From the NCBI GenBank assembly GCA_965116075.1, contig OZ220467.1:684580-748579 (forward strand): a stretch of 64,000 bases of DNA. The letters are read 5' to 3'. Numbering within the stretch: position 1 is the first letter of the stretch; each line of letters opens with the position of its first letter. The translations under genes were made by a program, and so were the position numbers. The DNA is from Thermodesulfobacteriota bacterium (GTDB lineage: Bacteria > Desulfobacterota_D > UBA1144 > Nemesobacterales > Nemesobacteraceae). Under the pieces are notes generated by a model that searched no databases, was not told the origin of the DNA, and saw nothing but the letters and a program-made list of their open reading frames with translations. Below are positions 6,258 to 61,400 of the stretch, in pieces.

Positions 6258-6267
6258 TAGTGTTGCG

Positions 6268-27872: not shown

Positions 27873-27902
27873 TTGACAGAAATCATTAAAGTGTGGTAAA
27901 CT
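27873..27902 (+). promoter_or_regulatory. candidate sigma70 promoter of the giant gene (TTGACA - 18 nt - TGgTAAACT extended -10)
   Basis: ttgaca at 27873-27878 and tg.taaact at 27894-27902. The predicted +1 falls at ~27909, the A of an ATG, which would give a leaderless transcript. Confidence 0.4.
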
Positions 27903-27983: not shown

Positions 27984-28453
27984 GAGACCTGCGCGGGACG
28001 CTTCGCTTGGCGGCGCTGGCCGCCGTTCTCCTGTTCGCGCTGAGCGCGGGCCTTGCGCCCCAGGCTGCGCATGCCACGTGGGGGGTCTTGACGGCCACCC
28101 CGGGCGATGGGCAGGTTACGCTGACCTGGACTTGGACGCACTCAAGACCTAACTTCAGCCACTGGTTTTTCAGGTATGTAAGAGCTGGCCAACCTTATCC
28201 CGGGTATGACTGTTTGCCTAGATTTAATATCTGCTCCATTGACGACCCAAAGTACAGACTGACAGGGGCTCATCATCGCACCCAGACGATTACCGGACTC
28301 ACCAATGGGGTCGAGTACGTGTTTGAGGTACGCGCCCATGTTCCTAATACGGTTTTGGAGGTGAGGGCGACCCCGTCGCGCTATCCCATTGCCCCGAAGG
28401 GCGTACGCGACGCCGGGAACCAGCCAGGTCACCTTGTCCTGGGACGCTCATAA
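27980..28453 (+). CDS. giant secreted repeat protein, N-terminal segment (signal peptide plus first FN3-like domain), frame 2; separated from the main frame by a +/-1 frameshift
   Basis: MRDLRGTLRLAALAAVLLFALSAGLAPQAAHA-TWG... has the n-, h- and AHA-cleavage regions of a Sec signal peptide. It is followed by an FN3-like fold (TITGLTNGVEYVFEVRA). The frame ends at TAA 28451, while frame 3 opens at 28365. Confidence 0.7.
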   Translation: MRDLRGTLRLAALAAVLLFALSAGLAPQAAHATWGVLTATPGDGQVTLTWTWTHSRPNFSHWFFRYVRAGQPYPGYDCLPRFNICSIDDPKYRLTGAHHRTQTITGLTNGVEYVFEVRAHVPNTVLEVRATPSRYPIAPKGVRDAGNQPGHLVLGRS

Positions 28454-37400: not shown

Positions 37401-40400
37401 CTGACCAACGGCACCAAGTACCGTTTCCGCATCCGGGCGGTGAACGACGTCGGTAACGGCGCCGAGTCTTCGGTGGTGCGGGCGACGCCGACGTTCGTCG
37501 AGCCTGTCACCCTCACCGCCACGGCCGGACCGCGCGGCGCCGTGACGTTGAACTGGACCGTCAAGAGCAGCAACCCCAATCGGCTGGTCAAGGGTGCCGA
37601 CCGCGTCAGCGGGTGGGAAAGCCGGTACCGGCTGAAAGGAAGACAGGACTGGAACGGATTCGTCCGCCACACAACCACCGGAGGCGATTCGCGGACCGTC
37701 TCGACGAACATGTCGGATCTCATTCCGCATGGCGGGATCGTGGAGATTCAGATCCGGCCGGCCGGTTCCTCCGGCGCCTCGGTCTCGACGCGAACAGGCC
37801 CCTGGTCGAACACGGCGACGGTCACCCTCAACGACGTGGACGACGCCAATACCGCCCTCAAGTTCACCGGTGTTCCGATCACGGTGGCGCCGGGCGAGGA
37901 TGCCACCTACACGGTCCGGCTGACCAAGCCATACGCGGCGGGTACTGTGTCAATCACGAGCGACGCCACGGGCAAGGCGACGGTGGACCCGGCGTCCCTG
38001 ACGTTCACGGCGCAGAATTACAATGTGGCGCAGGACGTGACGGTGAGCGGCGTGGAGGCCGGCACGGCGACCCTCAACCACTCGTTCCGGGTGACCGGCG
38101 CCAGCGCCGATGCGGTTCCCGACGCGGGTACGGTGGCGGTGACGGTCAGCGCGGCCCCCGCCCCCGGCGTGACGCTCTCGTCGACCGAGCTGACGGTGGA
38201 GGAAGGCGCCAGCGGCGAGTACACGGTGAAACTGGACACGGCGCCGTCGGCGAACGTGACGGTGACGGTGGGCGGCGAATCGGGTGAGGTGACGGTGGAC
38301 CCGTCTTCGCTGACGTTCACGCCGTCGAACTTCGGCACGGCGCAGACGGTTACGGTCAACGCCGGGGCTGACGAGGACACGACGGACGACACGGCGACGC
38401 TGACGCATAAGGCTTCCAGTAGCGACATGGGCTACGGCGACTCCCTGGACATCGACGATGTCACGGTCATGGTGACGGACACGACGCCGATATTGCAGCT
38501 ATTGACGGATCCTGCGGCGGTGATGGAGGGCTCGGACATCAGCCTGATGGTGACGTCGGACCGCGCGTTGACGGGCGATCTGACGGTGAGTCTGACGCTT
38601 TCGGGTCGGGGTTTGAGCGGTTTCGACGCGGACGACATCCCGGGTATGCTGGGTCCGCGGCCCTTCACCGCGTCGTTCGGCAACAGCGCCAGCACGACGG
38701 GTACGGTGACGATCCCGACCAGCACGGACTCGGATGCGGAGGGCGCGGAGACCTACACGATCACGCTGAACGACGGGACCGGCTACGCGCTCGGCGCCGA
38801 CAAGACGGCGGACGGCACGCTGAACGACCCGCCGCAGTCCACCGCGCTGAGCATCGCGGACGTGACGGCGGCGGAGGACGGGACGTTTACATTCACGGTG
38901 ACGGCGGCGCCGTCGCCGTCCTCGCAGGTGACGTTCAAGTACACGGTGACGGCGGAGAGCGGCGACACGGCGACGGCGGATACGGACTTCACGGCGGTGG
39001 CGACAGCGACCGCGGCGACCATCGCGGCGAACGCGAGCAGCGCGACGATCACGGTGACGGTAACGGACGACGCCCTCGACGAATCGGACGAGACGTTCAC
39101 GGTGACGCTGTCGGAGCCGTCGTCCGGCGTGACGCTCTCTGACGCCACCGCAACGGGCACGATCCAGGACAACGACCCCTCGCCGGCCCTGTCGATCGCG
39201 GCGCCGGCGGCGGTCGCGGAAGGCGACAGCGGTAGCGCCGATATGATATTCACGGTCACGCTGGACGCGCCCAGCGGTCGTGCGGTGACGGTGGACTACG
39301 CGGTGGATGAGACCTCGACTGCGACGGCGGGGACGGACTTCAGCGGTGGCGCCGGCACGCTAACCTTTGCGGCGGGTGAGACCAGCAAGACGATTACGGT
39401 TGCGGTTGCGGGCGACGAGTTGGACGAGGTGGACGAGACGGTGACGCTTAAGCTTTCGAACGCGACCAACGCCAGCATCGCCACCGCGACGGCGACGGGG
39501 ACAATCACGGACGACGATCCGGCCCCTGGCGTGACGGTTTCCGTCTCCGAACTGACGGTGACGGAAAGCAGCACCGCCAACTACACCGTGGTGCTGAATA
39601 CGCGGCCGGCGGGTGAGGTGACGGTCACGCCGCGCAGCGACGACCCCGGAGCGGCGACGGTGTCCGGTCCGCTGACCTTCACCCGCTTTAATTGGAACAG
39701 GCCCCGGACGGTGACGGTCACGGCGGTGCCGGATGGCGATACCGGCGACGAGAGCGTCACTGTGAGTCATGCCGTGACCGGCTACGGTAGTGTGAGCGCG
39801 GCCCCGTCCGTATCGGTGACGGTGACGGACACGACGCCGACGCTACAGTTATCGACGGATCCGGCGGCGGTGACCGAGGGTGAGGCGATCAATCTGACAG
39901 TGACATCGGACAAGGCGCTGGCGGGTGGTCTGGCGGTGAGTCTGACGCTGGAGGACCGTGACACGAGCGGTTTCAAGGCGGAGGACATCCAGGGATCCTT
40001 GGGTCCGCGCGACTTCATCGCATCCTTCGGCGCCACCGCCAGCACAACAGGGACGGTGACGATCCCGACCAGCACGGACTACCTTGAGGAGGGCCAGGAG
40101 ACCTACCGAATCACGCTGAACGAGGGCGCCGGCTACGCGGTAGACGAGGACAACAACACGGCCGACGGCGCGCTGAACGATGGCACGCCGGCCCTGGGCG
40201 CCGGTGCGATTGCGCTGTTCATTTCGGACACGGAGGCGGCGGAGGGCGAGAAGATGTTGTTCACGGTGTCGGTGGCGCCGGCGTCGTCCTTGCCGATCAC
40301 GTTCAAGTACACGGTGACGGCAGAGAGCGGCGACACCGCGACCGCCGGCTCGGACTTCACGGCGGTGACGATGCCGATGGAGGCGACGATTGCGGCGAGC

Positions 40401-43400
40401 GCGACGAGCGCGACGATCAGCGTGTCGCTCCTCCAGGACACCGAGGTCGAGGGCGACGAGACGTTCACGGTGACGCTGTCCGAGCCGTCTTCGGGCGTGA
40501 CGATCACGGATGCGACGGCGACCGGAACGATCGCTGACGACGACGAGGGCATCGCCAGGCCGACCTCGTTGCGCATCACGGCGGTGGAGGACGCGATCAC
40601 GCTGCGGTGGACCGCCCGGACCGACCCCGAGATCGACAAGTGGCAGTACCGGTTCAAGAACAAGGAGCGCAGCTGGCGCGGCTGGAACCCGTTTGATGTC
40701 AGGAACAGCACGGCGTCGACCCGATCCGTCACCCTGAACAAGAGGGGTACATTGCACGGGGGCGTGGGTCAGTATCAGGTCCGGGCGGTGGTTGTCGTCC
40801 CGATCCGGCCGGAGTTTGGCGGAGGCGAGGAGGAGACCTTCGGTCCGTGGTCGGAACTGGCGGAGGTGAGCATTGTCAACACCGACAACCTGGGTCTGGA
40901 GTTCAGCGGCGGCGGGATCACGAGGACGGGAGGCGCCAGCGTTGCCTGGAACGCAAGCGTTGCGCAGGATGCCAGCATAACCTATGGCGTGAGGCTGAGC
41001 GCCGCGGCGCTGCCCTACCTGGATCGGACGGCGGAGGTGACGCTGACGGGCGGCAGCGGTGTGCGGGTAAGCCCGGCCTCGCTGACGTTCACCCGTGCCA
41101 CCGCCCGGACCGCGCAGCCGGTGACGATCACGGGGGTTGCCGCCGGCAGCGCCGCCATTGAGCACGCCGTCCGTTTTCCGGCGCTGGCGCTGCTTGATCC
41201 CGCGGGGACGATTGCGGTGACGGTGACGGAGGAGGAAGCGGTGTCGCTGAGCGTGGCGGACGTGACAGCGGCGGAGGGTGGTACGTTTACGTTCACGGTG
41301 ACGGCCAATCCGGCGCCTTCGGCAGAGGTGACGTTCAAGTACAAGGTGACGGCTGAGAGCGGTGACACGGCGACTGCGGATACGGACTTCACGGTGGTGA
41401 CGACGGCAACGGCAAAGACGATTGCGGCGAACGCGAGCAGCGCGACGATCACTGTGTCGGTGACGGACGACACCCTGGATGAGGCTGATGAGACGTTTAC
41501 GGTGACGTTGTCGGACCCGTCCTCCGGGGTGACGCTCTCGGACGCCACCGCAACAGGCACGATTACGGACAACGACGATCCGCCTGCTCTGTCGATCGCG
41601 GCGCCGGCTACGGCGGTTGCGGAAGGCGACAGCGGCAGCGCGGATATGACGTTCACCGTCACGCTGGATGCGGCCAGCGGTCGTGCGGTGACGGTGGATT
41701 ACGCGGTGGATGCGACCTCGACTGCGACTGCAGGGACGGACTTCAGCGGTGGCGCCGGCACTCTAACCTTTGCGGCGGGTGAGACCAGCGAGACGATTAC
41801 GGTTGCGGTGACGGGCGACGAGTTGGACGAGGTGGACGAGACGGTGGTGTTGAAGCTTTCGAATGAGAGCAACGCCACGATCCCCACTGCGACGGCGACG
41901 GCGAGTGGAACGATAACGGATGACGACGCATCGCCGGTGCTGGCGGCGCTGACGGCTCAGACGGTGACGGTCGGCGAGGACGTGGACATCACGGCGTCGG
42001 CAACGGACGGAGATGGGGACACGGTGACGTACGTCTGGACGCGCAAGGTGGGCGAGACGACGCCGGCGATTCCGAATGACACTGTGCTGGACGAGGATCA
42101 ACTGACGTTCACGACGACGGCGCCGGGCACGTACACGATGACAGTGACGGCCTCAGACGGCAACGGCAACGAGGACACCGAGACTGTGACGATCACGGTG
42201 ACGACGTCCACAGTCATGGCGGCGCCGTGCAGGATTGCGATTTCGTCGTTGAGTAGTCCGAATCAGCGGATACTGTTTGTGACGGTGAGCGTACCGGCCA
42301 ACTGCGGACCAGTTCCGAAGGCGGAGATACAGGTCAAGACCGCGGCTCAGGAGTGGAGCGACGTGTCCTGGATTGCCTTGGGGAACCTGGCCCTGTCCAA
42401 CAGCGATCAGCCGCAGACGGTCTCTAGAGTGTTCAACCTGTCGCCACCGGGCCTTCCGCCGCTGACGGGTTTGCGCAATGTGCGGGCGCGGGCGCTCAAC
42501 GGGGATAAGGCGGGTCCGGAATCGGTGGTTGCGCACATCTGGTTTGGTCCGCTGTCGCAGCCGGCAGGTTTGCAGGCGGTGGCGGGCAACCGGCACGTGA
42601 AGTTGAGTTGGACGGACGCGGCGAACCCGACGTTGACGGGTTGGGAGTACCGACAGAAGCCGGATGGCGGTGAGTACGGCGAGTGGACGGCGATGAGCGG
42701 TTCCGGCGCGGGGACGACCAGTTATCCGGCGCCGGGGCTTACGAACGGTACGGAGTACGCGTTCCAGATTCGCTCAAGGAGCGGGAGCGCCGCCAGCGCG
42801 GCTTCTTCGGAAGTGACGGCGACGCCGACGGGGGGCGTACCCAGGCAGCCGGAGCTCACGTCCGGCGAGCCGGGCGACGGTCAGGTACGGGTGTTGTGGC
42901 GCGCCCTTGGGGACCCGAGCGTGACGAAGTGGCAGTCGCGACGGAAGCTGGACAGCGCTACCAACTGGCCTGATACCTGGATGGACATCAGCGGTTCCGA
43001 TGCGGAGACGACGAGTCATACGTTCACCGGTCTGACGAACGGTACGCCGTACGCGTTCCAGGTCCGCGCGGTGAACGACCAGGGCGCGGGTCCGGCTTCG
43101 ACGGGTTTGAGCGCGACGCCGAGCGTTGAGCCGTTCGTGAGGCCTGTGGGCGTGGCCGCGAAGGCGGGCAATGGTCAGGTGACGCTGTCATGGACGGACC
43201 CGGGCAACGCGTCAATCACGAAGTGGCAGTATCGTTGGAAGCTTGCCAGCGTGAGCGCTTGGGGCGCGGTGAAGGACGTGTCCGATTCGGATGCGGAGAC
43301 GACGAGCGTGGAGGTGACGGGGCTTACGAACAGCGCGGCGTATGACTTCCAGGTGCGCGCGTTCGGTACCGTGAGTGGTTACTGGTCGTTGGTGGTGTCG

Positions 43401-46400
43401 GCGACGCCGCTTACGCCGCCTGGGGCTCCGCAGAACCTGGCGACGAGTGACGGCGACGGTCAGGTGATATTGCGGTGGCGTAATCAGGGTGATAGTACGA
43501 TCACCGGCTGGGAGTACCGGCAGAAGCCGGATGGCGGTGAGTACGGTGAGTGGATGGCGATCGACGGTTCCGGTTCGGGGACGACGACCCACACGGTGAC
43601 GGGGCTTACGAACGGCACCCGGTACACGTTCGAGGTGCGCGCGGAGAACGGCGGTGGCAAGGGGGCGTCGTCGGAGGTGATGGCGACGCCGGTACGGGGT
43701 CCTGCCGAGGCGCCGACGGGTTTCACGGTGACGCCGGGGGACGGTCAGGTGACGTTGTCTTGGGACAGTTCGGATGATGATCGTATCAGCCGCTGGAGCT
43801 ACCGGCAGAAGGCGGGCGACGGCGAGTACGGCAGGTGGACCGCTATTCCGGGTGATGCGACGACGACGAGCCACACGGTGACGGGGCTTACGAACGGCAC
43901 GAAGTACACGTTCCAGGTTCGGGCGTGGCAGAAGGACAGTGTGGCGGGCAAGTCTACCGCCGGGATCACAGTGACGCCGACGCCGGCCCCAGCGACGGCG
44001 GTTTCGCTAAGTATCGCGGATGCGACGGTAGCGGAGGCTGCGGGTACGATGTCGTTCACGGTGACGGCGACTCCGGCGCCGAGTTCGCTGATAACGTTCC
44101 AGTACGCGGTGACGGCGGAGAGTGGGAACACGGCGACTGCGGGTACGGATTTCACCGGGGTGTCGACGCCGACTGAGGTGACGATTGCGGCTAACGCGAG
44201 TAGCGCGACGATTGCGGTTGCGGTGACGGACGATGTTCTGGTAGAGGGTGATGAGACGTTTACGGTGACGTTGTCAGCGCCGTCTGCCGGAGTGACGATT
44301 TCCGATGCTACGGCGACGGGTACGATCACCGATGACGACTTCTTGCCGGGCAAGCCTGCGGGATTTGAGGCGACGGGAGGCAACGCTCAGGTGGCCCTGT
44401 CGTGGGACGATCCGGAGGACGCGAGCATCACGCGTTACGAGTTGCAGCAGAAGGAGAGGAGCAACGCCTGGGGTTCGTGGACTGCGATATCGGATTCGGA
44501 CGCGGAGACGACGACCCATACGGTGACGGGACTGGATAACGGCAGTGAGTATCGCTTCCGCATCCGTGCGGTAAACCCGAGCGGCGCGGGCGCGCAGTCT
44601 TCGGTGGTGAAGGCGACGCCGCAGGCGAATCCCGCAAAGCCTGTGCTGACGGCGACGGCGGGCAACGCTCAGGTGACGTTGAGTTGGCAGTTGCAGCCGG
44701 GCATTGCGATCGCGACCTGGACGTATCAGTACAGCAGCGACGGCGGTTCTACGTGGAGCGCGTCGCAGACGGTGACGGGCGCGAGCGCGACGAGCACGGT
44801 GGTGACGGGGCTTACGAACGACACGGAGTACGCGTTCCGTATGTTCGCTGCGGTGGGTCCGGGCGCGCAGTCCGCGTGGTCGGACTTTGTGAAGGCGACG
44901 CCGAGGGCGCCGGCGCCTGCCGCCCCGGCGAATTTCAGCGCGAGTCCCGGCAACGCCCAGGTGAAGTTGACGTGGGATGATCCTGAGGACGCGAGCATCA
45001 GCGTCTGGCAGTTGCGCTACGGCAAGCAGGGTGAGGACTGGGGTTCATGGAAGAGGATGTCGGGATCGGACGCGAGCACGACCACTCACACGGTGACGGG
45101 TCTTGAGAACGGCAGCGCGTACCGTTTTCGGATTCGGGCGAAGAACAGCAGTGGCTTGGGCGCGCGGTCGCCTGCGGTGACGGCAACGCCCCGGGTGCTG
45201 GTGAAGCCTGTGGTGACGGCGCAAGCGGGCGACGGTAAGGTGACGTTAAGCTGGTCTGCGCAGCCGGGTTCCGGCGTGACGGCCTGGGTCTACCAGTCGA
45301 GTAGCGATGGTGGTTCTACGTGGAGCGCGTCGCAGACGGTGACGGGCGGCAGCGTGACGAGCGTGGTGGTGACGGGACTTACGAACGACACGGAGTACGC
45401 GTTCCGTATGTTCGCCCGCGCTGGCAGCGCGCAGTCTTCGTGGTCGGACCATGTGAAGGCTACGCCGAAAGCGGCATCGCTGAGCGTTGCGGACGTGACG
45501 GCTGCGGAGGATGGCGCGTTCACATTCACGGTGACGGCTGATCCTGCGCCGGCCTCGGAGATCAGTTTCAAGTACACGGTGACGGCGGAGACCGGCGATA
45601 CGGCGACTGCGGGTACGGACTTCACGGCGGTTACGACAGCGACGGAGAAGACGATTGCTGCGAACGCGACCAGCGTGTCGATAACGGTGACGGTGACGGA
45701 TGATGATATTGACGAGGACAATGAGACGTTTACGGTGACGTTGTCAGAGCCGTCCTCCGGGGTGACGCTCACCGACGCTACGGCGACGGGTACGATAACG
45801 GACAATGACACGGCGGGCGTGACGATCTCGCCGACCTCGCTGACGGTGGAGGAAGGTGATAGCGGCGAGTACACGGTGGCGCTGGACACGGAGCCGACGG
45901 CGGACGTGACGGTGACGGTGGGCGGAGAATCAGGCGAGGTGACGGTGGACCCGTCTTCGCTGACGTTCACGTCGTCGAACTACGGCACGGCGCAGACGGT
46001 GACGGTGAGCGCCGGGTCGGATGCGGACGCGACGGACGATACTGCGACGCTGACGCATGAGGCGTCCGGCAGCGACACGAACTACGGCTCGTCGCTTGAC
46101 ATAGACGAAGTCTCGGTGACGGTGACGGACACGACGCCGACGTTGCAGTTATTGACGGACCCTGCGGCGGTGACGGAGGGGACGGCGATCAGTCTTTCGG
46201 TGACGTCGGACCGGGCGCTGACGGGTAATCTGACGGTGAGCCTGACGCTTTCGGGCCGTGGTTCGAGCGGTTTCGATGCGGACGACATTCCGGGCGGGTT
46301 GGGTCCGCGTGACTTCACCGCATCGTTTGGCAACACCGCCGGCAGGACGGGCGTGGTGACGATCCCGACCAGCACGGACTCGACCACGGAGGGCGCGGAG

Positions 46401-49400
46401 ACATACCGGATCACGCTTAGCGATGCCGACGGCTATGCGGTTGGCGACGATGTGACGGCTGACGGCACGTTGAACGACGGCGCGGCGACGCCCTGCAAGG
46501 TGTCGGTGACGAACTACCGCGCGATTGACGACAGTGGTTTTCTGCCGGTTTACTCGATTTCGTTCGGTTTGCGGATACCGGCGAACTGTGGTCCGATCAC
46601 GGGGATGCAGCGTCAGATCAAGACCTTGAGTCAGGGCTGGGGCGATGTGGAGTGGGTGGACCTGGAGAATGCGGGTCTGCGTACGTTTGCTAACAGCGCC
46701 ACTGCCAGGACGCCTTCCGGAATCGAGCTGGTCTTCCTGAATTCCGGCAGCGGCAAGCATCAGGTTCGGGTGCGCGCGCAGAACGGCGCGCGAGTCGGTC
46801 CGGCATCCGACGAGGTGTCGGTGACGTTCGAAGTCCCGCCCACACCGAGCGGGCTGAGCGCGACCCCTGGCGCTGCCTCGGTGACGCTGACCTGGAATGC
46901 GCAGTCCGGGGAGCAGATCACGTCGTGGAACGTCCAGTACAAGCGGGGTTCCGAGTCGTACCGGAACCTGCACGTGGCGGATGCCGGGGACGGCAGCACG
47001 ACGACGGCTACGGTGACGGGTCTGTCGGCAGAGGAGTACACGTTCCGTTTGCAGGCTAGGAACGAGAACGGTCTGAGCGCGGCCTCGTCGACGGTGACGG
47101 CGACGCCGACAGCAGCGACCGTGGTTCCGCCCGCTCCGACGGGCGTGAGGGCGACGGGGGGTGACGGCGAGGTGACGCTGTCGTGGACCGACCCGCAGAA
47201 CGATACGATCACGAAGTGGCAGTACCGGCAGAAGACGGGTAGCGGCGCTTACGGTGAGTGGACGGACCTTGAGCACAGCCGGACACGTAGCGCGTTTCCG
47301 ACGCTGACGGGTACGGTTGGTGATCTGACGAACGGGAGTTCGTATACGTTCGAGCTTCGCGCGGTGAACGGTGTCGGCGCTGGCGCGGCTTCTTCTGAGG
47401 TTACGGTGACGCTGGGCGCGGATGCGGATGCGGTATCGCTGAGCGTTGCGGACCTGACGGCGGCGGAGGGCGGTACGTTCGCGTTCACGGTGACGGCGAC
47501 GCCTGCGCCGGCCTCGGAGATCAGCTTCAAGTACACGGTGACGGCGGAGACCGGCGATACGGCGACTGCCGATACGGATTTCACAGAGGTTGATACGGCG
47601 ACCGAGGTGACGATTGCGGCGAACGCGACCACGGCGACGATAACGGTGTCGGTGACGGATGACGATCTTGATGAGGACAATGAGACGTTTACGGTGACGT
47701 TGTCAGAGCAGACCTCCGGGGTGACGCTCTCTGACGCCACTGCGACAGGGACGATAACGGATGATGATAATTCCCCGGTATTGGAAGATATAGAGGATTT
47801 AACGATAAGGCTGGGGCAGTCGGTGGATATAACTGCGGTGGCGACGGATGCGGACGACGATGACATCGGCTATGTCTGGACGCGTAAGTCCGGGGAGACG
47901 TCCCCTGCGATACCTGGTAGCGCGGATCTGGAAGTGGCTCGGTTGATGTTCAAGTCTACCTCGGTGGGTACGTACACGATGACGGTGACCGCATCTGACG
48001 GCAATGGGAACAGCGATACGGAGGAAGTGGAGATCACGGTGGTACGGGCGCGCGTGGTCTCGGTGCCGGCGACGCTGTCGGTGGCGGAGGATGATGGCGA
48101 TGCGGTGGTGACGGTGACGACGGAGGGCGCGTTTGGTGAGAATGTGACGTTTAACGTGACGTACGGTGGTACGAGCGCGACGGGGCACAACGACCCTGCC
48201 AGCGGCGACTATGACAATGATGCGGTGACGGCGATAACGTTTGGAGCGGGCGACCTGACAAAAGACATTGAGGTGCCGATAACGGATGATAATCTTGAAG
48301 AGGCTGATGAGACGTTCACGGTGACGATTGCCCCTGCGACCGCCACGCTGCCTGATGGTTTCGCAATGGGAGATGCCACGACGACGGTGACGATAGAGGA
48401 CAATGATACGCAAGCGCCGTGTAAGGTGGAGGTGGTGGATGTATCAACGACGGCGGATGCCAGTCCGTTCCCCGGCGGTCAATCAATTTACTCAATATCG
48501 TTTAAGGTGAGGATACCTGCGGATTGCGGCGCTATAACCAATATGCAGAGGCGTATAAAGACGAACGGGCAGTGGGGTGAATGGACGGATAATGAGGTGT
48601 TGCGCAGTTTTGCTGACAGCGCTACGGCAAGGACGCCTGCGGAGATGGAGTTGATACTCGTAGCGGATGGTAGCGCGAGGGAGGTGCAGGTTCGGGCGTT
48701 AAACGGTAGTAAGACAGGTCCTGAGTCAGAAGCTGTTGGCGTCACGTTTACCGCGCCGGGCAAGCCGGGTGGTTTGAGCGCTACAGGCGGGGCTGGTTCC
48801 GCAGCGTTGAGTTGGGATGGGCAGACGGGAGAGCAGATCACGGCATGGGTGGTGGAGTACAAGCGTGGTTCAGAGAGTTATAAGAGTAAGGTGATAGTGG
48901 ATGCTGGAGATGGTAGCGCTACAGCGACGACTATCACGGGTTTAGCGTCTGAGGAATACACTTTTCGTATAAAGGCGCGTAATCCAAACGGAGACAGTCC
49001 TTATTCAGATGAGACGACAGCTACGCCAGAGGCGGTGACCGCTGCTCCTGCGGCGCCGACGGGAGTGACGGGCAGTCCGGGGGACGGGGAAGTGAGGTTG
49101 GAGTGGGCAGACCCAGAAGATGCGAACATAACGAAGTGGCAATATGAGCAGAAGGCCGGTAGCGGCGCTTATGATGGGGCTTGGACGGACATCACGGTAT
49201 CAAAGAGCGGATCTCTTTCCAGGTTAACGGGTACGGTCACGGGTTTGACAAATGGCGTCAGTTATACGTTTAAGGCGCGCGCGGTGAATAGCGCGCTAAA
49301 TAGCGCTGTCGCCGGCTCGGGCAACGGCGCGGAATCGGATGAGGTGACGGTAGTGCCGATAGCGGCGCCGACGGGATTAACGGTGACGCCTGCGGGCAGT

Positions 49401-52400
49401 GGCAAGTTGCGTTTGAGGTGGACGGCGCCGACGGATGCGTCCCGTACGGGATGGGAGGTTAGGCACAGGGCGTCTGGAGGTGAATGGGGTGAGTGGGCTG
49501 CCATAACGGGCGCGGGTACGACGAGTCATCTTCTTACGGGATTAACGACGGGGACTTACTACAGGGTGCAGGTTAGAGCGGTGAACGGTAATGTAAAGAG
49601 CGCGACGGCGTTTGGTACTGCGGAGGTGAGAGGGACCGTATCGTTGAGCGTTGCGGACGTGACGGCTGCGGAGGATGGCGCGTTCGCATTCACGGTGACG
49701 GCGACGCCTGCGCCGGCTTCGGATATAAGCTTTAAGTACACGGTGACGGCGGAGAGTGATGACACTGCGACTGCGGGTACGGACTTCACGGCGGTTGAGA
49801 CGGCGACCGAGGTGACGATTGCGGCGGGTGAGACCACGGCGACGATAACGGTTGTGGTGACGGATGATGACATTGATGAGTCGGATGAGACGTTCACGGT
49901 GACGTTGTCAGACCTTCCGGAATGGGTGGAGTTGGGTGATCCCACCGCGACAGGGACGATAACGGACAACGATGAGACGCCAGCGCCGTGTAAGGTGGAG
50001 GTGGTGGATGTATCAACGACGGCGGATGCCAGTCCGTTCCCCGGCGGTCAATCGATTTACTCAATATCATTTAAGGTGAGGATACCTGCGGATTGCGGCG
50101 CTATAACCAATATGCAGAGGCGTATAAAGACGAACGGGCAGTGGGGCGAATGGACGGATAATGAGGTGTTGCGCAGTTTTGGGGACAGCGCTACGGCAAG
50201 GACGCCTGCGGAGATGGAGTTGATACTCGTAGCGGATGGAAGCGCGAGGGAGGTGCAGGTTCGCGCGTTAAACGGTAGTAAGACAGGTCCTGAGTCAGAA
50301 GCTGTTGGCGTCACGTTTACCGCGCCGGGCAAGCCGGGTGGTTTGAGCGCTACAGGCGGGGCTGGTTCCGCAGCGTTGAGTTGGGATGGGCAGACGGGAG
50401 AGCAGATCACGGCATGGGTGGTGGAGTACAAGCGTGGGTCAGAGAGTTATAAGAGTAAGGTGATAGTGGATGCTGGAGATGGTAGCGCTACAGCGACGAC
50501 TATCACGGGTTTAGCGCCTGAGGAATACACTTTTCGTATAAAGGCGCGTAATCCAAACGGAGACAGTCCTTATTCAGATGAGACGACGGCTACGCCGGGC
50601 GCGGTGACCGCTGCTCCTGCGGCGCCGACGGGAGTGACGGGCAGTCCGGGGGACGGGGAAGTGAGGTTGGAGTGGGCAGACCCAGAAGATGCGAACATAA
50701 CGAAGTGGCAATATGAGCAGAAGGCCGGTAGCGGCGCTTATGATGGGGCTTGGACGGACATCACGGTATCAAAGAGCGGATCTCTTTCCAGGTTAACGGG
50801 TACGGTCACGGGTTTGACAAACGGCGTCAGTTATACGTTTAAGGCGCGCGCGGTAAATAGCGCGCTAAATAGCGCTGTCGCCGGCTCGGGCAACGGCGCG
50901 GAATCGGATGAGGTGACGGTAGTGCCGATAGCTGCGCCGACGGGATTAACGGTGACGCCTGCGGGCAGTGGCAAGTTGCGTTTGAGGTGGACGGCGCCGA
51001 CGGATGCGTCCCGTACGGGATGGGAGGTTAGGCACAGGGCGTCTGGAGGTGAATGGGGTGAGTGGGCTGCCATAACGGGCGCGGGTACGACGAGTCATCT
51101 TCTTACGGGATTAACGACGGGGACTTACTACAGGGTGCAGGTTAGAGCGGTGAACGGTAATGTAAAGAGCGCGACGGCGTTTGGGACTGCGGAGGTGAGA
51201 GGGACCGTATCGTTGAGCGTTGCGGACGTGGAGGCTGCGGAGGATGGCGCGTTCACGTTCACGGTGACGGCGACGCCGGCGCCGGCTTCGGATATAAGCT
51301 TTAAGTACACGGTGACGGCGGAGAGTGATGATACTGCGACTGCGGGTACGGACTTCACGGCGGTTGAGACGGCGACCGAGGTGACGATTGCGGCGGGAGA
51401 GACCACGGCGACGATAACGGTTGTGGTGACGGATGATGACATTGATGAGTCGGATGAGACGTTCACGGTGACGTTGTCAGACCTTCCGGAATGGGTGGAG
51501 TTGGGTGATCCCACCGCGACAGGGACGATAACGGACAATGATGAGACTCCTGCGCCGTGTAAGGTGGAGGTGGTGGATGTATCAACGACGGCGGATGCCA
51601 GTCCGTTCCCCGGCGGTCAATCGATTTACTCAATATCGTTTAGGGTGAGGATACCTGCGACTTGCGGCGCTATAACCAATATGCAGAGGCGTATAAAGAC
51701 GAACGGGCAGTGGGGCGAGTGGACGGATAATGAGGTGTTGCGCAGTTTTGGGGACAGCGCTACGGCAAGGACGCCTGCGGAGATGGAGTTGATACTCGTA
51801 GCGGATGGTAGCGCGAGGGAGGTGCAGGTTCGGGCGTTAAACGGTAGTAAGACAGGTCCTGAGTCAGAAGCTGTTGGCGTCACGTTTACCGCGCCGGGCA
51901 AGCCGGGTGGTTTGAGCGCTACAGGCGGGGCTGGTTCCGCAGCGTTGAGTTGGGACGGGCAGACGGGAGAGCAGATCACGGCATGGGTGGTGGAGTACAA
52001 GCGTGGTTCAGAGAGTTATAAGAGTAAGGTGATAGTGGATGCTGGAGATGGTAGCACTACAGAGGCGACTATCACGGGTTTAGCGCCTGAGGAATACACT
52101 TTTCGCATAAAGGCGCGTAATCCAAACGGAGACAGTCCTTATTCAGATGAGACGACGGCTACGCCAGAAGCGGTGACCGCTGCTCCTGCGGCGCCGACGG
52201 GAGTAATGGGCAGTCCGGGGGACGGGGAAGTGAGGTTGGAGTGGGCAGACCCAGAAGATGCGAACATAACGAAGTGGCAATATGAGCAGAAGGCCGGTAG
52301 CGGCGCTTATGATGAGGCTTGGACGGACATCACGGTATCAAAGAGCGGATCTCTTTCCAGGTTAACGGGTACGGTCACGGGTTTGACAAACGGCGTCAGT

Positions 52401-55400
52401 TATACGTTTAAGGCGCGCGCGGTGAATAGCGCGCTAAATAGCGCTGTCGCCGGCTCGGGCAACGGCGCGGAATCGGATGAGGTGACGGTAGTGCCGATAG
52501 CGGCGCCGACGGGATTAACGGTGACGCCTGCGGGCAGTGGCAAGTTGCGTTTGAGGTGGACGGCGCCGACGGATGCGTCCCGTACGGGATGGGAGGTTAG
52601 GCACAGGGCGTCTGGAGGTGAATGGGGTGAGTGGGCTGCCATAACGGGCGCGGGTACGACGAGTCATCTTCTTACGGGATTAACGACGGGGACTTACTAC
52701 AGGGTGCAGGTTAGAGCGGTGAGTTCTAATGGAAGAAGCGCGACGGCGTTTGGTACTGCGGAGGTGAGAGGGACCGTATCGTTGAGCGTTGCGGACGTGG
52801 AGGCTGCGGAGGACGGCGCGTTCGCATTCACGGTGACGGCGACGCCTGCGCCGGCTTCGGAGATAAGCTTTAAGTACACGGTGACGGCGGAGAGTGATGA
52901 CACTGCGACTGCGGGTACGGACTTCACGGCGGTTGAGACGGCGACCGAGGTTACGATTGCGGCGGGTGAGACCACGGAGACGATAACGGTTGTGGTGGCG
53001 GATGATGACATTGATGAGTCGGATGAGACGTTCACGGTGACGTTGTCAGACCTTCCCGAATGGGTGGAGTTGGGTGATCCCACCGCGACAGGGACGATAA
53101 CGGACAATGACAATTCACCTGTGGTGGCGGCGATAGAGGATAAGACGATTAGTTTGGGGCAGCCGGTGGATATAACGGCGTCTGCGACGGATGCGGACAG
53201 TGGCGATACGATCAGCTACGCATGGACGCGTAAGTCCGGGGAGACGTCCCCTGCGATACCGGATGGCACGGCGCTGGACGCTGCGCGGTTGATGTTCACG
53301 CCGCTTGCGAAGGGTAAGTACACGATGACGGTGACTGCAAGTGACGGCAACGGCAACACGGGCGTTGAGGAAGTGACGGTCACGGTAAGCGATAAGGGTA
53401 CGGTGTCGGTGTCGCCGACGGCGTCGGTGACGGAGGGTACGGACGCGGCGGCGGTGAGGGTAACGGCTTCGTCGGCGTTGGGTAAGTCTGTGACGTTTAA
53501 CGTGACGTATGGTGGTACGAGCGCGACGGGGCACAACGACCCTGCCAGCGGCGACTATGACAACGATGCGGTGACGGCGGTAACGTTTGGAGCGGGTGAT
53601 CTGACAAAAGACATTGCAGTGCCGATAACGGATGATGATCTGGACGAAGATGACGAGACGTTCACGGTAACAATCGCCCTGGCGGGGGGCAGTTCGCTGC
53701 CTGCGGGTTTTGAGTTAGGGAATGTCCGAACGACGGTGACGATAACGGATGATGATAGTTCTCCGGAGTTGGAGGAGATAGATGATAGTACGGTGAAGCG
53801 AGGGGGTGAAGTGGACATCACTGCGGTGGCGACGGATGCGGACGGTGATACGGTGACGTACGCCTGGACGCGCAAGGCGGGTGAGACGTCACCGGCGCTT
53901 CCGAACGGCGTGGCGTTGAATGCGGCTCGTCTGACGTTCACTACGACCGAGGTGGGTAAGTACACGATGACGGTGACGGCATCTGACGGCAATGGGAACA
54001 GCGATAGTGAAGAGGTGGTGATAACGGTCAGTAACCCTCCCGCAAAGCCTAAGGGGTTTGAAGTCAGTGCGGGCAACGCGCGTGTGGTGTTGTCGTGGAG
54101 AGACCCTGAAGACGATAGCATAACCGGTTGGGAGATGCGGCAACGGAAGGGTAGCGCGTCTTGGGGGCAGTGGGCAGGCATTGCGGATTCCGACGCTGAT
54201 ACTACCACTCACGCGGTGACGGGGCTTACGAACGGTAGCGAGTACCGTTTTCAGATACGAGCGGTGAACGACGCTGGTAAGAGTAAACCGTCGCCGGCGC
54301 TGGCAGCGACGCCGAAGGAGAGTTTGCTGGTCAAGCCGGTGTTGACGGCGACTGGTGGCGACAGATCAGTGACATTGAGTTGGACGCACCCGGACACGGG
54401 GATTACCAGTTGGGTTTACCAGTACAAAAGCGGTACGCAGGAGTGGAGTACGGACCGACAGGAGACTATAACAGGAGGGAGCGGGACGAGCAAAGTGGTG
54501 ACGGGGCTTACGAACGGAACGGAGTACATGTTCCGCGTATTCGTTCGCGCAGGGCTGACGTCGCAATCCGGATGGTCGTCGGAGGCGACGGCGACGCCGG
54601 GCGCGCTTACGATTTCCGTGGAGGCTATGACGGTGGAGGAGGGGGATTCCGGGGAGACGCCGATGGATTTTCAGGTGAGGTTAAGCGGTTCTCCGAGCGA
54701 TAGGGTGGAGATAGAAGTTACGGCGTGGGCGAAGGGGGTTACGGGAGCGGCGGCAAAGGGAGGTAAAGGGGCTGGTCAGGATTTCATAGGGTTTAGGGCT
54801 CGGAGGATAGTTTTTGCCGCAGGCGCGACGGGCGCTGATTTAAGTAAGACGGTGCGAGTGAAGGTATTGGGAGATGAGGTGGATGAGGAGGATGAGAAGT
54901 TTATCCTGCGACTCAACTATATACGTACTAATTTGACAGGCGTGGGTTTTGCGGGAGGTGAGTCCAAGTTGGAAGTGACAGGCACGATAACGGATGATGA
55001 TGAGGCTACGGCTAGCGGGCATGAGATTTCGGTAGAGGATGTGACGATAGCCGAGGGTGACGTGGGAGAGAAGGAGATGAGTTTCACGGTGACGCTAAGC
55101 GGGACTCCGAGTCACGAGGTGGGGATAGAAGTTACGGCGTGGGCGAAGGGAGTTACGGGAGAGGCGGCTAAGGGAGGCAGGGGGCCTGGGCGTGATTTCA
55201 TAGGTTTTAGGGCTCGGAAGATAGCTTTTGCCGCAGGCGCGACAGGCGCTGGTCTAAGTAAGACAGTGCGAGTGAAGGTACTGGGAGATGAGGTGGATGA
55301 GGAAGATGAGGAGTTTATCCTGCTACTCAACAACCTAAGGACGGAAGATACCCGCGTGGTTTTTGCGGGAGGTGAGTCCAAGTTGGAAGTGACAGGCACG

Positions 55401-58400
55401 ATAACGGATGATGACGAGGCTACGGCTAGCGGGCATGAGATTTCAGTGGGGGATGCGACGGTAACCGAGGGTGACTCTGGCGCGCGTACGAGTATGAATT
55501 TCACCGTGACGTTAAGTGGTACGCCGAGTCATGAGGTTAAGGTTCGCGCTGTTGCCAAGGACGGTACGGCAGAGGAAGGCGCTGGGAAGGACTTCAGGCA
55601 GTACTCTGGAAACAAGGAGGTGGTTTTTGCCGCGGGCGCGACGGGTAGTGGATTAAGTAAGACGGTGGTGGTGCAGGTACTGGGGGATGATATAGATGAG
55701 GGAGAACAAGAGGAGTTTACTCTGCAGTTGAGTAGCATAAGGACGGAAGATGCGCGTGTGGTATTTGCCGGGAACAAAGGGAACATAGAAGCCACTGGTA
55801 CGATAACGGATGATGATACGGCGGGCGTGACGTTGTCTGAGTCTGCGCTGACGGTGGAAGAAGGTGGTAGCGGGACCTACGAGGTGAAGCTTGACACTAA
55901 ACCTTCAAGTGAAGTGACGGTGACGGTGAGCGGTGAGTCAGGTGAAGTGACGGTTATGGGTTCGCCGCTGACGTTCACGCCGGCCAACTACAACGTGGCG
56001 CAGACGGTGACGGTGAATGCGGGGACGGATGCGGACGCGACGGATGACACTGCGACGCTGACGCATGCGGCATCCAGTACCGATACGAACTACGGTTCTT
56101 CTCTGGAAGTGGAAGACCTTTCGGTGACGGTGACGGATACGACGCCGACGTTGCAGCTATTGACGGACCCTGCGGCGGTGACGGAGGGGACAAGCATAAG
56201 TCTCTCGGTGTCTTCGGACCGCGCGTTAACGGGCGATCTGACGGTGAGTCTGACGCTTGCGGACCGTGGACCAAGCGGTTTTGATGCGGACGACATTCAG
56301 AGTACGCTGGGTCCGCGGGACTTCACCGCTTCGTTCGGCGACACCGCCGGCACGACAGGTACGGTGAGTATTCCGACTATCTCAGATGCCACTTCAGAGG
56401 GCGCGGAGACATACCGGATAACGCTTAACGACGGTACGGGGTACGTAGTGGGCGCCAAGACTACGGCGGATGGGGCGGTGAATGACCCGCTGGCAAAGCC
56501 GGCGGGACTTACGGCCAGTCCCGGCAATACGCGGGTGGAGTTGTCGTGGGACGACCCTGAGAACGGTAGCATAACGGTTTGGCAGGCGCAGCATAGCAAG
56601 GTAGGCGAGAGTTGGGGTTCCTGGACGGATATTAGCGGTTCTGACGCGAGCACTACCACTCACGCGGTGACTGGTCTGGATAACGGTAGCGAGTACCGTT
56701 TCAGGATACGAGCGAAGAGCAGTAGTGAGGTGGGACCGCAGTCGGCTGTGGTGAGAGCGACGCCGCGTGTAGTGGTGAAGCCGGTGGTGACGGCGACTGC
56801 GGGCGCCGGGTCGGTGACGTTGAGTTGGCCTGCGCAGCCGGGTTCCGGCGTGACGGCGTGGGGCTACCAGTCGAGTAGCGATGGTGGTACGAGCTGGACG
56901 TCGACGAAGATCGTGAACGACGGCAGCGCGACGAGCGTGGTGGTGAAGGGGCTTACCAACGGTACGGAGTACACGTTCCGGGTGTTTGGTCGCGCTGGCT
57001 CTGCGCAGTCGTCCTGGTCAGACCACGTGAAGGCGACCCCGTTGGCGAAGCCTGGAAGGCCGGCGGGTTTTTCGGTAAGCGGTGGTGACGCGCAGGTGGA
57101 GTTATCGTGGAACGACCCTGACAACGACACTATAACGGTTTGGCAGGCGCGTTACGGCAAGGTGGGCGAAGACTGGGGCGATTGGACAGATATAGAAAGT
57201 TCTGACGCCGATACTACGAGTCACACGGTGAGTGGGCTTGATAACGGCAGCGAGTACCGTTTCAAGGTACGGGCGGTGAACAGTAGCGGTAACGGTCGTG
57301 AGTCGGCTACGCTTAAAGCGACGCCGGAGGAGAATAGGGTAGCCAAGCCGGTCTTGAGAGCTACGGCAGGTGACGGGTCAGTGACATTGAGGTGGAAGAG
57401 ACAGGCCGGAGTTACGAGTTGGGTATATCAGTACAAAAGCGGTACGCAGGAGTGGAGCGCGCGACCACAGAAGACTGTAACAGGAGGAAACACGACGAGC
57501 GTGGTGGTGACGGGGCTTACGAATGATACGGAATACACGTTTCGGATGTTTGCCCGCGCTGACTCTGCGCAGTCTGCGTGGTCGGACTTCGCGAAGGCGA
57601 CGCCGAAGGCGCCGGCGCCCGCTATGCCGACGGGGCTTGTGGCAAGCGCGGGCAATGCGCAGGTGGAGTTGTCATGGTCCGACCCTGAGAACGACAGCAT
57701 AACGGTTTGGCAGGCGCGTTACGGCAAGGTAGGGGGATCATGGGGCGCTTGGACGGACATCTCCGGTTCTGACGCGGATACCACAAGCCACACCGTATCA
57801 GGGCTTACCAACGGCAGCGAGTATCGTTTCCGAATCCGGGCGAAGAACAGCAGTGGGCCAAGCGACCCGTCGGCTGTGGTGAGAGCGACGCCGGAGCAGC
57901 CGGAGACCGCGGGCGTGACGGTGTCAGTGTCGTCGCTGACGGTGAAGGAAGGAGGCAGCAGGACCTACAAGGTGAAGCTTGACACCGCGCCGGGGGCGAA
58001 TGTGACGATAACGGTGGGTGGCGCATCGGGTGATGTGACGGTGGACCCGGCTTCCCTTACGTTCACGGCGGGCAACTACAACACGGCGCAGACGGTGACG
58101 GTGAGCGCGGCTGCGGACGCGGACACGACGGATGATGCGGTGACGCTGACGCATACGTCGGCCAGCACCGATACGAACTACGGCGCCTCGCTTGACATAG
58201 ACGACGTCTCGGTGACGGTGACGGATACGACGCCGACGTTACAGCTATTGACGGCTCCTGCGGAAGTGGCGGAGGGGTCAAGCATAAGTCTTTTGGTGAC
58301 ATCGGACAAGGCCCTGCGTGGTACGTTAAAAGTGAAGTTGACGTTATCTGACCGGGACTCAAGTGGATTTACAGCGGCGGATATTGTTGGTACGCTCGGG

Positions 58401-61400
58401 CCGCGAGAGTTCACGGTGAACTTCGGCAATACCCGTAGAACGACAGGTACGGTGAGCATTCCGACCAGCGCGGACGCGACTGCGGAGGGAGAGGAGACAT
58501 ACCGGATAACGCTTAACGCCGGTACGGGCTATGCGGTGGGTGACGATGCGACGACGGAGGGCGCGGTGAAAGACCCGCTGACAAAGCCGACGGGCTTTAG
58601 CGTGAGTCCTGGCAATGCGCAGGTGGAGTTGTCGTGGAACGACCCGGATAACGACACCATAACGGGTTGGCAGGTACAGTACGGCAAGGCAGGGAAGTCA
58701 TGGGGTTCCTGGACGGATATTAGCGGTTCTGACGCGAGCACCACTACTCACACCGTGAGTGGGCTTACGAACGGTAGCGAGTATCGGTTCAGGATACGAG
58801 CGGTGAACAGTCTGGGCGATGGACCGAAGTCGTCTATAAAAACCACGACGCCGCGTGTAGTGGTGAAGCCGGTGGTGACGGCGACTGCGGGCGCCGGGTC
58901 GGTGACGTTGAGTTGGCCTGCGCAGCCGGGTTCCGGCGTGACGGCGTGGGGCTACCAGTCGAGTAGCGATGGTGGCACGAGCTGGACGTCGACGAAGATC
59001 GTGAACGACGGCAGCGCGACGAGCGTGGTGGTGAAGGGGCTTACGAACGGTACGGAGTACACGTTCCGGGTGTTTGGTCGCGCTGGCTCTGCGCAGTCAT
59101 CCTGGTCAGACCACGTGAAGGCGACCCCGTTGGCGAAGCCTGGAAGGCCGGCGGGTTTTTCGGTAAGCGGTGGTGACGCGCAGGTGGAGTTATCGTGGAA
59201 CGACCCTGACAACGACACTATAACGGTTTGGCAGGCGCGTTACGGCAAGGTGGGCGAAGACTGGGGCGATTGGACGGATATAGAAAGTTCTGACGCCGAT
59301 ACTACGAGTCACACGGTGAGTGGGCTTGATAACGGCAGCGAGTACCGTTTCAAGGTACGGGCGGTGAACAGTAGCGGTAACGGTCGTGAGTCGGCTACGC
59401 TTAAAGCGACGCCGGAGGAGAATAGGGTAGCCAAGCCGGTCTTGAGAGCTACGGCGGGTGACGGGTCAGTCACATTGAGGTGGAAGAGACAGGCCGGAGT
59501 TACGAGTTGGGTATATCAGTACAAAAGCGGTACGCAGGAGTGGAGCGCGCGACCACAGAAGACTGTAACAGGAGGGAGCGCGACGAGCGTGGTGGTAACG
59601 GGGCTTACGAATGATACGGAATACACGTTTCGAATGTTTGCCCGCGCTGGCTCTGCGCAGTCTGCGTGGTCGGACTTCGTGAAGGTGACGCCGAAGGCGC
59701 CGGCGCCCGCTGCGCCGACGGGACTTACGGCAAGCGCGGGCAATGCGCAGGTGGAGTTGTCATGGTCCGACCCTGAGAACGACAGCATAACGGTTTGGCA
59801 GGCGCGTTACGGCAAGGTGGGAAGATCATGGGGCGCTTGGACCGACATCTCCGGTTCTGACGCCGATACCACAAGCCACACCGTATCAGGGCTTACCAAC
59901 GGCAGCGAGTATCGTTTCCAAATCCGCGCGAGAAACAGCAGTGGACCAAGCGACCCGTCGGCTGTGGTGAGAGCGACGCCGGAGCAGCCGGAGACCGCGG
60001 GCGTGACGGTGTCAGTGTCGTCGCTGACGGTGAGGGAAGGAGGCAGCAGGAACTACAAGGTGAAGCTTGACACCGCGCCGGGGGCGAATGTGACGATAAC
60101 GATAGGTGGCGCATCAGGCACGGATGTGACGGTGGACCCGGCTTCCCTTACGTTCACGCCGGCCAACTACAACACGGCGCAGACGGTGACGGTGAGCGCG
60201 GCCGCGGATGAGGACACGACGGATGATGCGGCGACGCTGACGCACGCCGCATCTGGCGCTGATGGCTACGATGCCTCACTAGTAATAAAAAGCGTCTCGG
60301 TGACGGTGACGGATACGACGCCGACGTTACAGCTATTGACGGCTCCTGCGGAAGTGGCGGAGGGGTCAAGCATAATCCTGACGGTGACATCGGACAAGGC
60401 CCTGCGTGGTACGTTAAAAGTGAAGTTGACGTTATCTGACCGGGACTCAAGTGGATTTACAGCGGCGGATATTGTTGGTACGCTCGGGCCGCGAGAGTTC
60501 ACGGTGAACTTCGGCAATACCCGTAGAACGACAGGTACGGTGAGCATTCCGACCAGCGCGGACGCCACTGCGGAGGGAGAGGAGACATACCGGATAACGC
60601 TTAACGACGGTACGGGCTATGCGGTGGGTGACGATGCGACGACGGAGGGCGCGGTGAAAGACCCGCTGACAAAGCCGACGGGCTTTAGCGCCACTAAGGG
60701 TGACAGGCAGGTGGAGTTGTCATGGAACGACCCGGATAACGACACTATAACGGGTTGGCAGGCGCAGTACGGCAAGGTAGGGCAGTCATGGGGCGCTTGG
60801 ACGGATATTAGCGGTTCTGACGCGAGCACCACTACTCACACGGTGAGTGGGCTTACGAACGGTAGCGAGTATCGGTTCAGGATACGGGCGGTGAGCAGTC
60901 TGGGCGATGGACCGAAGTCGTCTATAAAAACCGCGACGCCGAAGGCGGTATCGCTAAGCGTGGCTAACGTGACGGCGGATGAGGATGGGACGTTCGCGTT
61001 CACGGTGACAGCCAGGCCGGCGCCATCATCAGAGGTGAGTTTTAAGTATACGGTGACGGCAGAGAGTGGAGACACGGCGACTGCGGGTACGGACTTCACG
61101 GCGGTTGAGACAGCGGCAGCGAAGACGATTGCGGCAAACGCGACCACAGCGACGATAACGGTGTCGGTGACCGATGATGGTCTTGATGAGAAAAACGAGA
61201 CGTTCACGGTGACGCTATCGGAGCCATCCGAAGGCGTGATGATAAGCGATGCCACGGCGAAGGGCAGGATAAGGGATAATGACAGTTCACCGGAGTTGGC
61301 GGAGATAACAAACAAGACGGTCATGCTGGGAGATGATGTGGATATTACAGCTTCTGCGACGGATGCGGACGGCGATGCCATAAGTTACGCCTGGACGCGT

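Follow-up and report, generated by a model that had tools for sequence, protein, structure and literature searches.

A 1,569-nucleotide in-frame triplication in a giant fn3/Calx-beta gene of an apparently Dadabacteria-like bacterium

Results

Three 1,569-nt units within a giant open reading frame

We analysed a stretch of 64,000 nucleotides (nt) from contig OZ220467.1 (positions 684,580 to 748,579), hereafter the window, in which a giant gene on the + strand carries a long internal tandem repeat. The giant frame is open from 28365 to 63998, that is over 11,878 codons, and runs past the window end at 64000; from its base composition some 367 stops would be expected, and none was observed. Over 28365-64000 (+) it comprises about 47 fn3-type and about 27 Calx-beta-type domains, plus PKD domains. 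The repeat, at 48414-53120 (+), consists of three head-to-tail units of 1,569 nt, each equal to 523 codons (1569 = 3 x 523) and hence in frame with the giant open reading frame (ORF). Because the period limit of 500 left the array unreported by Tandem Repeats Finder, we turned to lag-identity scans and self-BLAST. With the lag set to 1,569 nt, identity was high from about 48396 to 51541, which puts the array end near 53110 and the copy number at 3.0, and self-BLAST returned 97.5% identity across 3,178 nt. The unit boundaries were phased on codons and domains. For repeats of 1.5 kb at such identity, a chance origin is no issue.

A first-pass annotation, made from the letters alone, had already described three in-frame 1,569-bp tandem units in the giant gene, and we confirm this with coordinates shifted by one base. 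Its figure of more than 98% identity holds for units 1 and 2 (48414-49982 and 49983-51551, both +), which differ at 27 positions (98.28% nt identity), and fails for the pairs involving unit 3 (51552-53120, +), the most changed copy, which is 97.32% identical to unit 1 (42 differences) and 97.13% identical to unit 2 (45 differences). Likewise, what had been called a handful of substitutions amounts to 46 variable codons among the three units (25 synonymous and 21 non-synonymous), and the A/P exchange offered as an example is really Ser to Pro at unit residue 179 (GLASEEY versus GLAPEEY). The units also share perfect-identity tracts of 220-331 nt.

Domain composition of the unit

Mapping pieces of the unit against the whole protein with phmmer, together with Pfam scans, resolved five domains: an fn3-like domain A, three fn3 domains and one Calx-beta domain, located in unit 1 (+ strand) at 48414-48755, 48756-49034, 49035-49367, 49368-49625 and 49626-49982, respectively. 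Scored alone against PF00041 (gathering threshold 25), the three fn3 domains reached 36.4, 23.6 and 47.8 bits, the second thus lying slightly below the threshold and the first and third above it; over the segment 46002-54002 the same family scored 281 bits across 8 stretches. The Calx-beta domain (47.4 bits; PF03160, gathering threshold 27) aligns with CBD1 of the Na/Ca exchanger NCX1 (3us9, E = 1.3e-7), with DDDIDESDETF opposite DDDIFEEDKNF, and from this acidic motif we infer that it may bind Ca2+.

Domain A, with 114 residues and two cysteines, has no Pfam match. Against the gene's own fn3 profile it gave an hhalign probability of 74% (E = 2.8e-5), and it is modelled as a beta-sandwich in an AlphaFold2 prediction of the unit (mean predicted local distance difference test score 83, all-beta, five domains). 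The top Foldseek matches of this model in the PDB were to four consecutive FN3 domains, with 416-429 columns aligned. We read domain A as a divergent fn3-like domain, an assignment that is not settled.

Junctions, age of the array and selection on its units

The unit boundaries fall in the linker just after the conserved C-terminal 'xDND' motif of the Calx-beta domain. The left-flank junction reads ...TVTIEDNDTQ|APCKVEVV, units 1 and 2 both end in ...TGTITDNDETP|APCKVEVV, and unit 3 ends in ...ITDNDNSP|VVAAIEDK, leading into a PKD domain. The 3' end of the left-flank Calx-beta resembles the end of the unit itself over about 20 nt, though imperfectly. As far as sequence can tell, the junctions lie where they would be expected had the 3' ends of paralogous Calx-beta domains undergone unequal recombination or slippage.

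Using the Nei-Gojobori method, we obtained synonymous (dS) and non-synonymous (dN) divergences of 0.055 and 0.006 for units 1 and 2, 0.051 and 0.020 for units 1 and 3, and 0.063 and 0.018 for units 2 and 3. Counted on a three-branch tree, synonymous and non-synonymous changes were 8 and 4 on the branch of unit 1 (dN/dS 0.16), 12.5 and 2.5 on that of unit 2 (0.07), 11 and 19 on that of unit 3 (0.57, p = 0.1 against neutrality), and 31.5 and 25.5 over all branches (0.27, p = 1.6e-6 against neutrality). Since the synonymous branches are equal and the tree is star-like, the three copies appear to have arisen essentially together, in what was essentially one episode and not a very recent one. The alignment of units that the first-pass annotation had proposed for dating the duplications does not support its label of a recent expansion, dS being about equal (0.05-0.06) in all pairs.

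Private substitutions (11 in unit 1, 14 in unit 2 and 29 in unit 3) are interleaved along the whole units, and no gene-conversion tract is evident among the three. The copies thus seem to have co-existed for long, and neither gene conversion nor repeated loss and regain appears to have made them uniform. The overall dN/dS argues that the units were translated and under purifying selection after the triplication, and hence that the gene was functional at that stage; the 3'-terminal unit 3 appears freer to change. Within unit 3, seven changes are packed into 14 nt at 52723-52736 (NGNVK to SSNGR, at the end of the third fn3 domain); this cluster looks like a single complex event, and no donor for it was found elsewhere in the window with up to 6 mismatches allowed.

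These dates bear on the proposal that the array is an actively varying contingency repeat, in which RecA-dependent unequal crossing-over tunes protein length. Perfect identity over 220-331 nt is enough for homologous recombination by the substrate requirements of RecA, so that this part of the earlier hotspot claim stands and RecA-type recombination between units is possible in principle. The proposal also gains from module duplications of several ages in the gene and its relatives, including a 99.1% identical pair in one of the latter, and from a C14 tract upstream of the gene that hints at a phase-variable locus (both described below). On the other hand, if copies were often gained, lost or converted, the units should have become uniform, like the repeats of classic variable-repeat surface proteins, and the dS values, the 11-29 private changes per unit and the missing conversion tracts speak against it. 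Nothing indicates that recombination is frequent, and we consider an active array rather doubtful.

Composition, relatives in other phyla and possible mosaicism of the gene

The flank at 1-27.9 kb has a GC content of 43-44% and a GC content at third codon positions (GC3) of 0.39-0.49. The giant gene is at 57-70% GC, with GC3 up to 0.97, and its GC declines steadily from 5' to 3'. The switch lies at 27.95 kb, at the C14 tract directly upstream of the start codon. Genes of the flank follow the order seen in metagenome-assembled genomes (MAGs) of Ca. Dadabacteria, namely a luciferase-like oxidoreductase, PAPS reductase, a permease, ThrC, a beta-lactamase-fold protein, KsgA, an S13 peptidase, PolA and a methyltransferase. 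The window's PolA has a 100% identical counterpart on a 2,386,527-bp contig; a relative follows at 82%, and proteins named 'Ca. Dadabacteria' at 67-69%. On these matches we rejected Chlorobium chlorochromatii, whose 44% GC genome also has giant genes (Cag_0614/0616), as the source. Judged by these sequences, the host lineage is Dadabacteria-like. The giant gene was absent from the syntenic site in all related Dadabacteria genomes examined, and the closest of these has a 488-aa HemolysinCabind protein there. The whole GC-rich gene therefore looks imported into an AT-rich Dadabacteria-like genome. A chimeric assembly at the giant gene may also be considered, and is less favoured because the composition switches at the gene start.

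In a scan of GTDB, the best relatives were two loci of a Thermoanaerobaculia MAG (L001 and L003; OZ220482.1) and one of a Ca. Binatia MAG (L002; OZ219754.1), each a single open frame across all 22 kb at 69% GC; further relatives were found in MAGs of Caldilineaceae, Dehalococcoidia and Ca. Poriferisodalis. Window positions 33050-47780 match L001 1-15846, L002 1-15568 and L003 at 85-97% DNA identity. Within this stretch, 33050-34964 is 96% identical to L001, 34975-39520 is 90.7% identical to L002, 42176-45914 is 85-86% identical to all three loci, and 46485-47761 is 85% identical to L001 and L002. L001 6879-15846 and L002 6137-15108 themselves agree at 98.4% of positions along some 9 kb, and the A-fn3-fn3-Calx-beta modules of the two do not differ in any amino acid (100% identity). 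Such near-identity across two phyla means either that the gene passed between them very recently or that assembly or binning went wrong. Taking the DNA matches together, recent lateral transfer of the giant gene among unrelated bacteria would be the simplest reading.

Tiling along the gene revealed a break. Up to about 47.8 kb, identity to the relatives is 80-97% and GC3 is 0.74-0.97; beyond that point, array included, identity is 64-84% and GC3 is 0.56-0.74. The joint drop suggests that the gene is a mosaic whose break, near 47.8 kb, lies a short way to the left of the array, and that the 3' part including the array has a different, older history. The tripled module starts within about 0.6 kb of this breakpoint.

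A diverged module to the left of the array (A'-fn3-fn3-Calx-beta, 46491-47777, +; phmmer map) ends close to this break. An 'older, more diverged copy' had been placed immediately upstream of the array; a diverged paralogous module is indeed present there, shorter than claimed and lacking the third fn3 domain. Its amino-acid identity is 84% to the module of L001 and L002 and 64% to the array unit, which is also the identity of the L001/L002 module to the array unit. This proximity to other phyla weakens its status as an older copy, and the module may have been brought alongside by recombination instead of being an older in-situ duplicate. The full interval annotated earlier, 46490-48414, appears to match a longer ancestral unit that runs from A to Calx-beta and on through PKD and a second Calx-beta, paralogous to unit 3 plus the sequence after the array.

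The gene start: promoter-like site, C14 tract and probable frameshift

Upstream of the gene we found a promoter-like site at 27873-27902 (+), with TTGACA, an 18-nt spacer and TG-TAAACT; it has 10 of 12 consensus matches and an extended -10 TG, and is a consensus match only. Between this site and the GTG start lies the C14 homopolymer, at 27937-27950 (+), the sole homopolymer of at least 9 nt in the window, whose sequence makes it a candidate slipped-strand phase-variation tract. The first ORF (27980-28453, +) starts with GTG and encodes a signal peptide, MRDLRGTLRLAALAAVLLFALSAGLAPQAAHA. It also covers the first domain of the gene, an fn3-like one that at 20.6 bits falls short of the cutoff of 25. 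By eye, the signal sequence is a typical Sec-type one that ends in AHA.

This first ORF lies in a frame different from that of the giant ORF, and the two overlap at 28365-28453. Reading both frames places a probable frameshift at 28400-28412 (+), with ...PIAPKGVRDAGN in the one and ...AYATPGTSQVTLSW in the other. If 2 nt were put back into a CGCG run, the sequence would become APKGVRATPGTSQVTLSW, which resembles the inter-fn3 linker APTGVRATGGDGEVTLSW. The frameshift may reflect an error in the assembly or a gene inactivated very recently, or it may act as a slippage-type switch.

If it is an inactivation, the gene would be a recently inactivated pseudogene, a horizontally acquired relic whose array has no present function. 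The loss of the signal peptide after about 140 codons is in line with this, as are the dN/dS of unit 3, indistinguishable from neutrality, and the absence of the gene from the syntenic site in related Dadabacteria. We nevertheless find a relic unlikely, given the absence of stops from 11,878 codons whose composition predicts about 367, the strong purifying selection on units 1 and 2 since the duplication, and the chance that the frameshift is an assembly error in the CGCG run.

Neighbouring modules, other duplications and database searches

The array is bordered on both sides by a PKD and a Calx-beta domain: at 47778-48071 (K319L-like_PKD, 40 bits) and 48072-48413 (37.5 bits) on the left, both by Pfam, and at 53121-53396 (K319L-like_PKD, 54.8 bits, Pfam) and 53394-53765 (phmmer) on the right, all on the + strand. 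The two pairs (47778-48413 and 53121-53765) are paralogous, their PKD parts being 77% identical in nucleotides.

Two further duplications follow in the giant gene. A second in-frame tandem duplication, at 55815-60941 (+), has a period of 2,088 nt (696 codons), about 2.4 copies and 89.5-93% identity, each module containing a weak Calx-beta-like domain and five fn3 domains; it predates the 1,569-nt array. A tandem array with a 414-nt period, at 54669-55537, holds 2.1 copies of Calx-beta-like domains at 85% identity. The relatives carry module duplications of their own, at 99.1% identity in L002 (lag 1,494) and 94% in L001 and L003.

With the unit as query, an exhaustive profile search gave matches at E <= 1e-30 to 3,659 library representatives, many of them 2,000-7,900 aa long, and no close copy among them (none above 52% identity). 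No close copy was found in GTDB representative genomes, where the best locus had 57% amino-acid identity. A scan of JGI metagenomes returned nothing above 38% over a substantial length, and a word-indexed protein search returned partial matches of about 38-44%, none above 50%, all in proteins below 905 aa. The class of giant fn3/Calx-beta surface proteins is therefore common and this array is so far unique; the expansion of the module is an ordinary one of a well-known kind.

Outside the window, the same genome encodes a separate 803-aa protein, P0091, with Calx-beta domains 63% identical to that of the unit, a 'GGTPAATPTNPTGGGTRST' repeat and a hydrophobic C-terminus. This likeness indicates that genes of the source genome have Calx-beta modules in common.

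Other features of the flank

Two IS630-like copies, each with HTH_32 and DDE_3 ORFs, lie on the - strand at 6257-7503 and 8438-9687; they are 93% identical, at 57-63% GC versus 43% for the host, and the long + strand ORFs over them are spurious. Near them, a weak match to an rve integrase core, below the Pfam cutoff (3565-4122, -), adjoins a DinD-like DNA-damage-inducible gene (4657-5508), and 3565-5508 may be a further mobile-element remnant. At 18851-20517, between the beta-lactamase-fold gene and KsgA, where related Dadabacteria have only a small DivIC gene, we found an AAA_15/AAA_21 ATPase together with a 160-aa ORF without Pfam match. The ATPase matches anti-phage ATPase models weakly, and the pair is likely a small defence island. 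A search of 1-28500 for rRNA and other RNA markers found nothing.

Discussion

The data are best accounted for, we believe, by an in-frame triplication through unequal recombination, followed by independent divergence, in the stalk of a secreted, adhesin-like protein, and we regard this reading as probable. By analogy with proteins of similar domain content, the gene product would best be explained as a secreted, adhesin-like protein of giant size on the cell surface, with a length of at least about 11,900 aa. The module would initially have stood beside a left-hand Calx-beta neighbour whose 3' end resembled that of its own Calx-beta. Unequal homologous recombination or replication slippage between these '...T-I-x-D-N-D' ends would have duplicated exactly one module at the linker, and a second extra copy would have followed almost at once, because dS is equal for all pairs. 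Afterwards the units would have diverged independently, without concerted evolution, units 1 and 2 under purifying selection and unit 3 under relaxed or altered constraint. The tripling would have added ten beta-sandwich domains, for a total of 15 in the array and a length of about 50-60 nm at 3.5-4 nm per domain. The outcome may be a longer, Ca2+-stiffened stalk with more potential binding surfaces, as in the extender regions of giant adhesins. The array would thus be one case of a recurrent birth and divergence of modules in this gene family, and is not evidenced as a currently active copy-number switch.

Several observations weigh against this account. At the left junction only some 20 nt are homologous, with imperfect matching and a 3-nt indel, so the recombination step is a deduction. 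The frameshift at 28400-28412 separates the signal-peptide ORF from the giant frame, and a genuine shift would mean that no single secreted chain is produced. The role in length or adhesion is one of domain analogy only. GTDB representatives, JGI metagenomes and the protein collections searched held no second genome or contig with the array, so that its copy number has no counterpart for comparison. Finally, the units are 2-3% apart, a typical distance between strains, and the contig is derived from a metagenome.

The last two points would also suit an array that is an assembly artefact or has the wrong copy number, with further copies collapsed or with strain variants of a one- or two-copy region concatenated. 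Highly similar giant genes in co-assembled taxa likely make for a complex assembly graph, and an additional copy identical to one of the three units could be present. Nevertheless, the array sits within a contig of 2,386,527 bp, and a related assembly has contig names of the form ctgN_Nx_l, which we take to be the output of a long-read metagenome assembler. Moreover, both internal junctions are present and differ (GAGACGCCAGCG versus GAGACTCCTGCG), each unit has private substitutions along its entire length, the reading frame is kept throughout and the synonymous counts per branch are clock-like. We therefore hold repeat collapse to be unlikely, and an artefactual array in general to be quite improbable.

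A triplication followed by independent divergence may be set in a wider, more speculative frame, which we offer tentatively. The giant gene may be a library of modules that unrelated co-resident bacteria share and recombine. Its GC-rich 5' part, about 20 kb, would recently have entered the Dadabacteria-like chromosome by recombination with a nearly identical gene in a high-GC neighbour of Thermoanaerobaculia- or Binatia-like affiliation. The 3' part, with the tripled module, a GC3 of 0.56-0.74 and no close relatives, would be an older and partly ameliorated resident. The C14 tract, together with a slippage-prone frameshift, might control expression of the whole.

The organisation of the gene recalls that of giant adhesins of the RTX type, secreted by a type I secretion system (T1SS), such as Marinomonas MpIBP, Pseudomonas LapA, Salmonella SiiE and Vibrio FrhA, all with repetitive extender regions. 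SiiE in particular has been described as a giant adhesin (PMC6375660). As in their extenders, we find a very long tandem string of beta-sandwich domains with acidic Ca2+ motifs and in-frame unit duplication, and by analogy the string may act as a stalk that projects binding domains off the cell. Unlike in these adhesins, the domains are fn3, Calx-beta and PKD, not BIg (bacterial immunoglobulin-like), and the repeat unit has five domains, not one. RTX adhesins have an N-terminal retention module and no Sec signal, and here the signal peptide is of the Sec type. No RTX repeats, T1SS signal or T1SS genes were seen in the window, upstream genes included, the C-terminus of the protein lying beyond it. 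In view of the Sec-type signal at the first ORF, we do not file the gene as an RTX adhesin; it would only work like one.

Near-identical long repeats whose copy number varies by strain are also known from alpha C and Rib of group B Streptococcus, Aap and SasG of Staphylococcus and Esp of Enterococcus. The array shares with them long in-frame DNA repeats in a surface-protein gene, through which recombination can alter protein length. Unlike the essentially identical repeats of the alpha C/Rib/Aap type, the units described here are 2-3% diverged, with equal dS and without homogenisation.

A parallel in content is found among sponge symbionts, for which lateral transfer of fn3 and cadherin attachment genes has been reported (PMC8163846) and in which, for sponge-associated Actinobacteriota, fn3 and Calx-beta domains are enriched (PMC11706023). 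The eukaryotic-like fn3, cadherin and Calx-beta proteins of these symbionts resemble ours in domains and in evidence of inter-phylum transfer. The host here is Dadabacteria-like and the relatives come from MAGs of typical sponge-symbiont taxa, and to judge from the taxa involved, the window may originate from a sponge; in the literature searched, we found no confirmation of 'Ca. Poriferisodalis' as a sponge symbiont. Unlike the genes of those two studies, this one is far larger (at least 35 kb) and has about 15 kb at 85-97% DNA identity across phyla.

Giant genes as such have been documented in Apilactobacillus kunkeei, whose extracellular proteins Giant1-5 are solenoid or alpha-helical (PMC12863079), and in the survey of West-Roberts et al. 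(bioRxiv 10.1101/2023.11.21.568195), which includes dockerin and other domains in Omnitrophota. Like the present gene, these giant surface-protein genes evolve through recombination within the gene and through transfer between distant taxa, and an adhesion role has been proposed for them; their domain types and hosts are different.

The triplication itself matters little, beyond being a clean example of how a giant repetitive surface-protein gene grows at domain linkers. It does provide an internal clock (dS about 0.055), by which such long repeats can persist without homogenisation, and a three-copy, 4.7-kb array at 97-98% identity marks a spot where short-read assemblies would fail. The context, that is the apparent lateral transfer and mosaicism of the giant gene, weighs more than the array. 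If the assemblies are sound, an adhesion gene would have been exchanged between phyla recently and on a large scale, probably among symbionts that share a host, and this would make a tractable system in which to follow the spread and remodelling of such genes.

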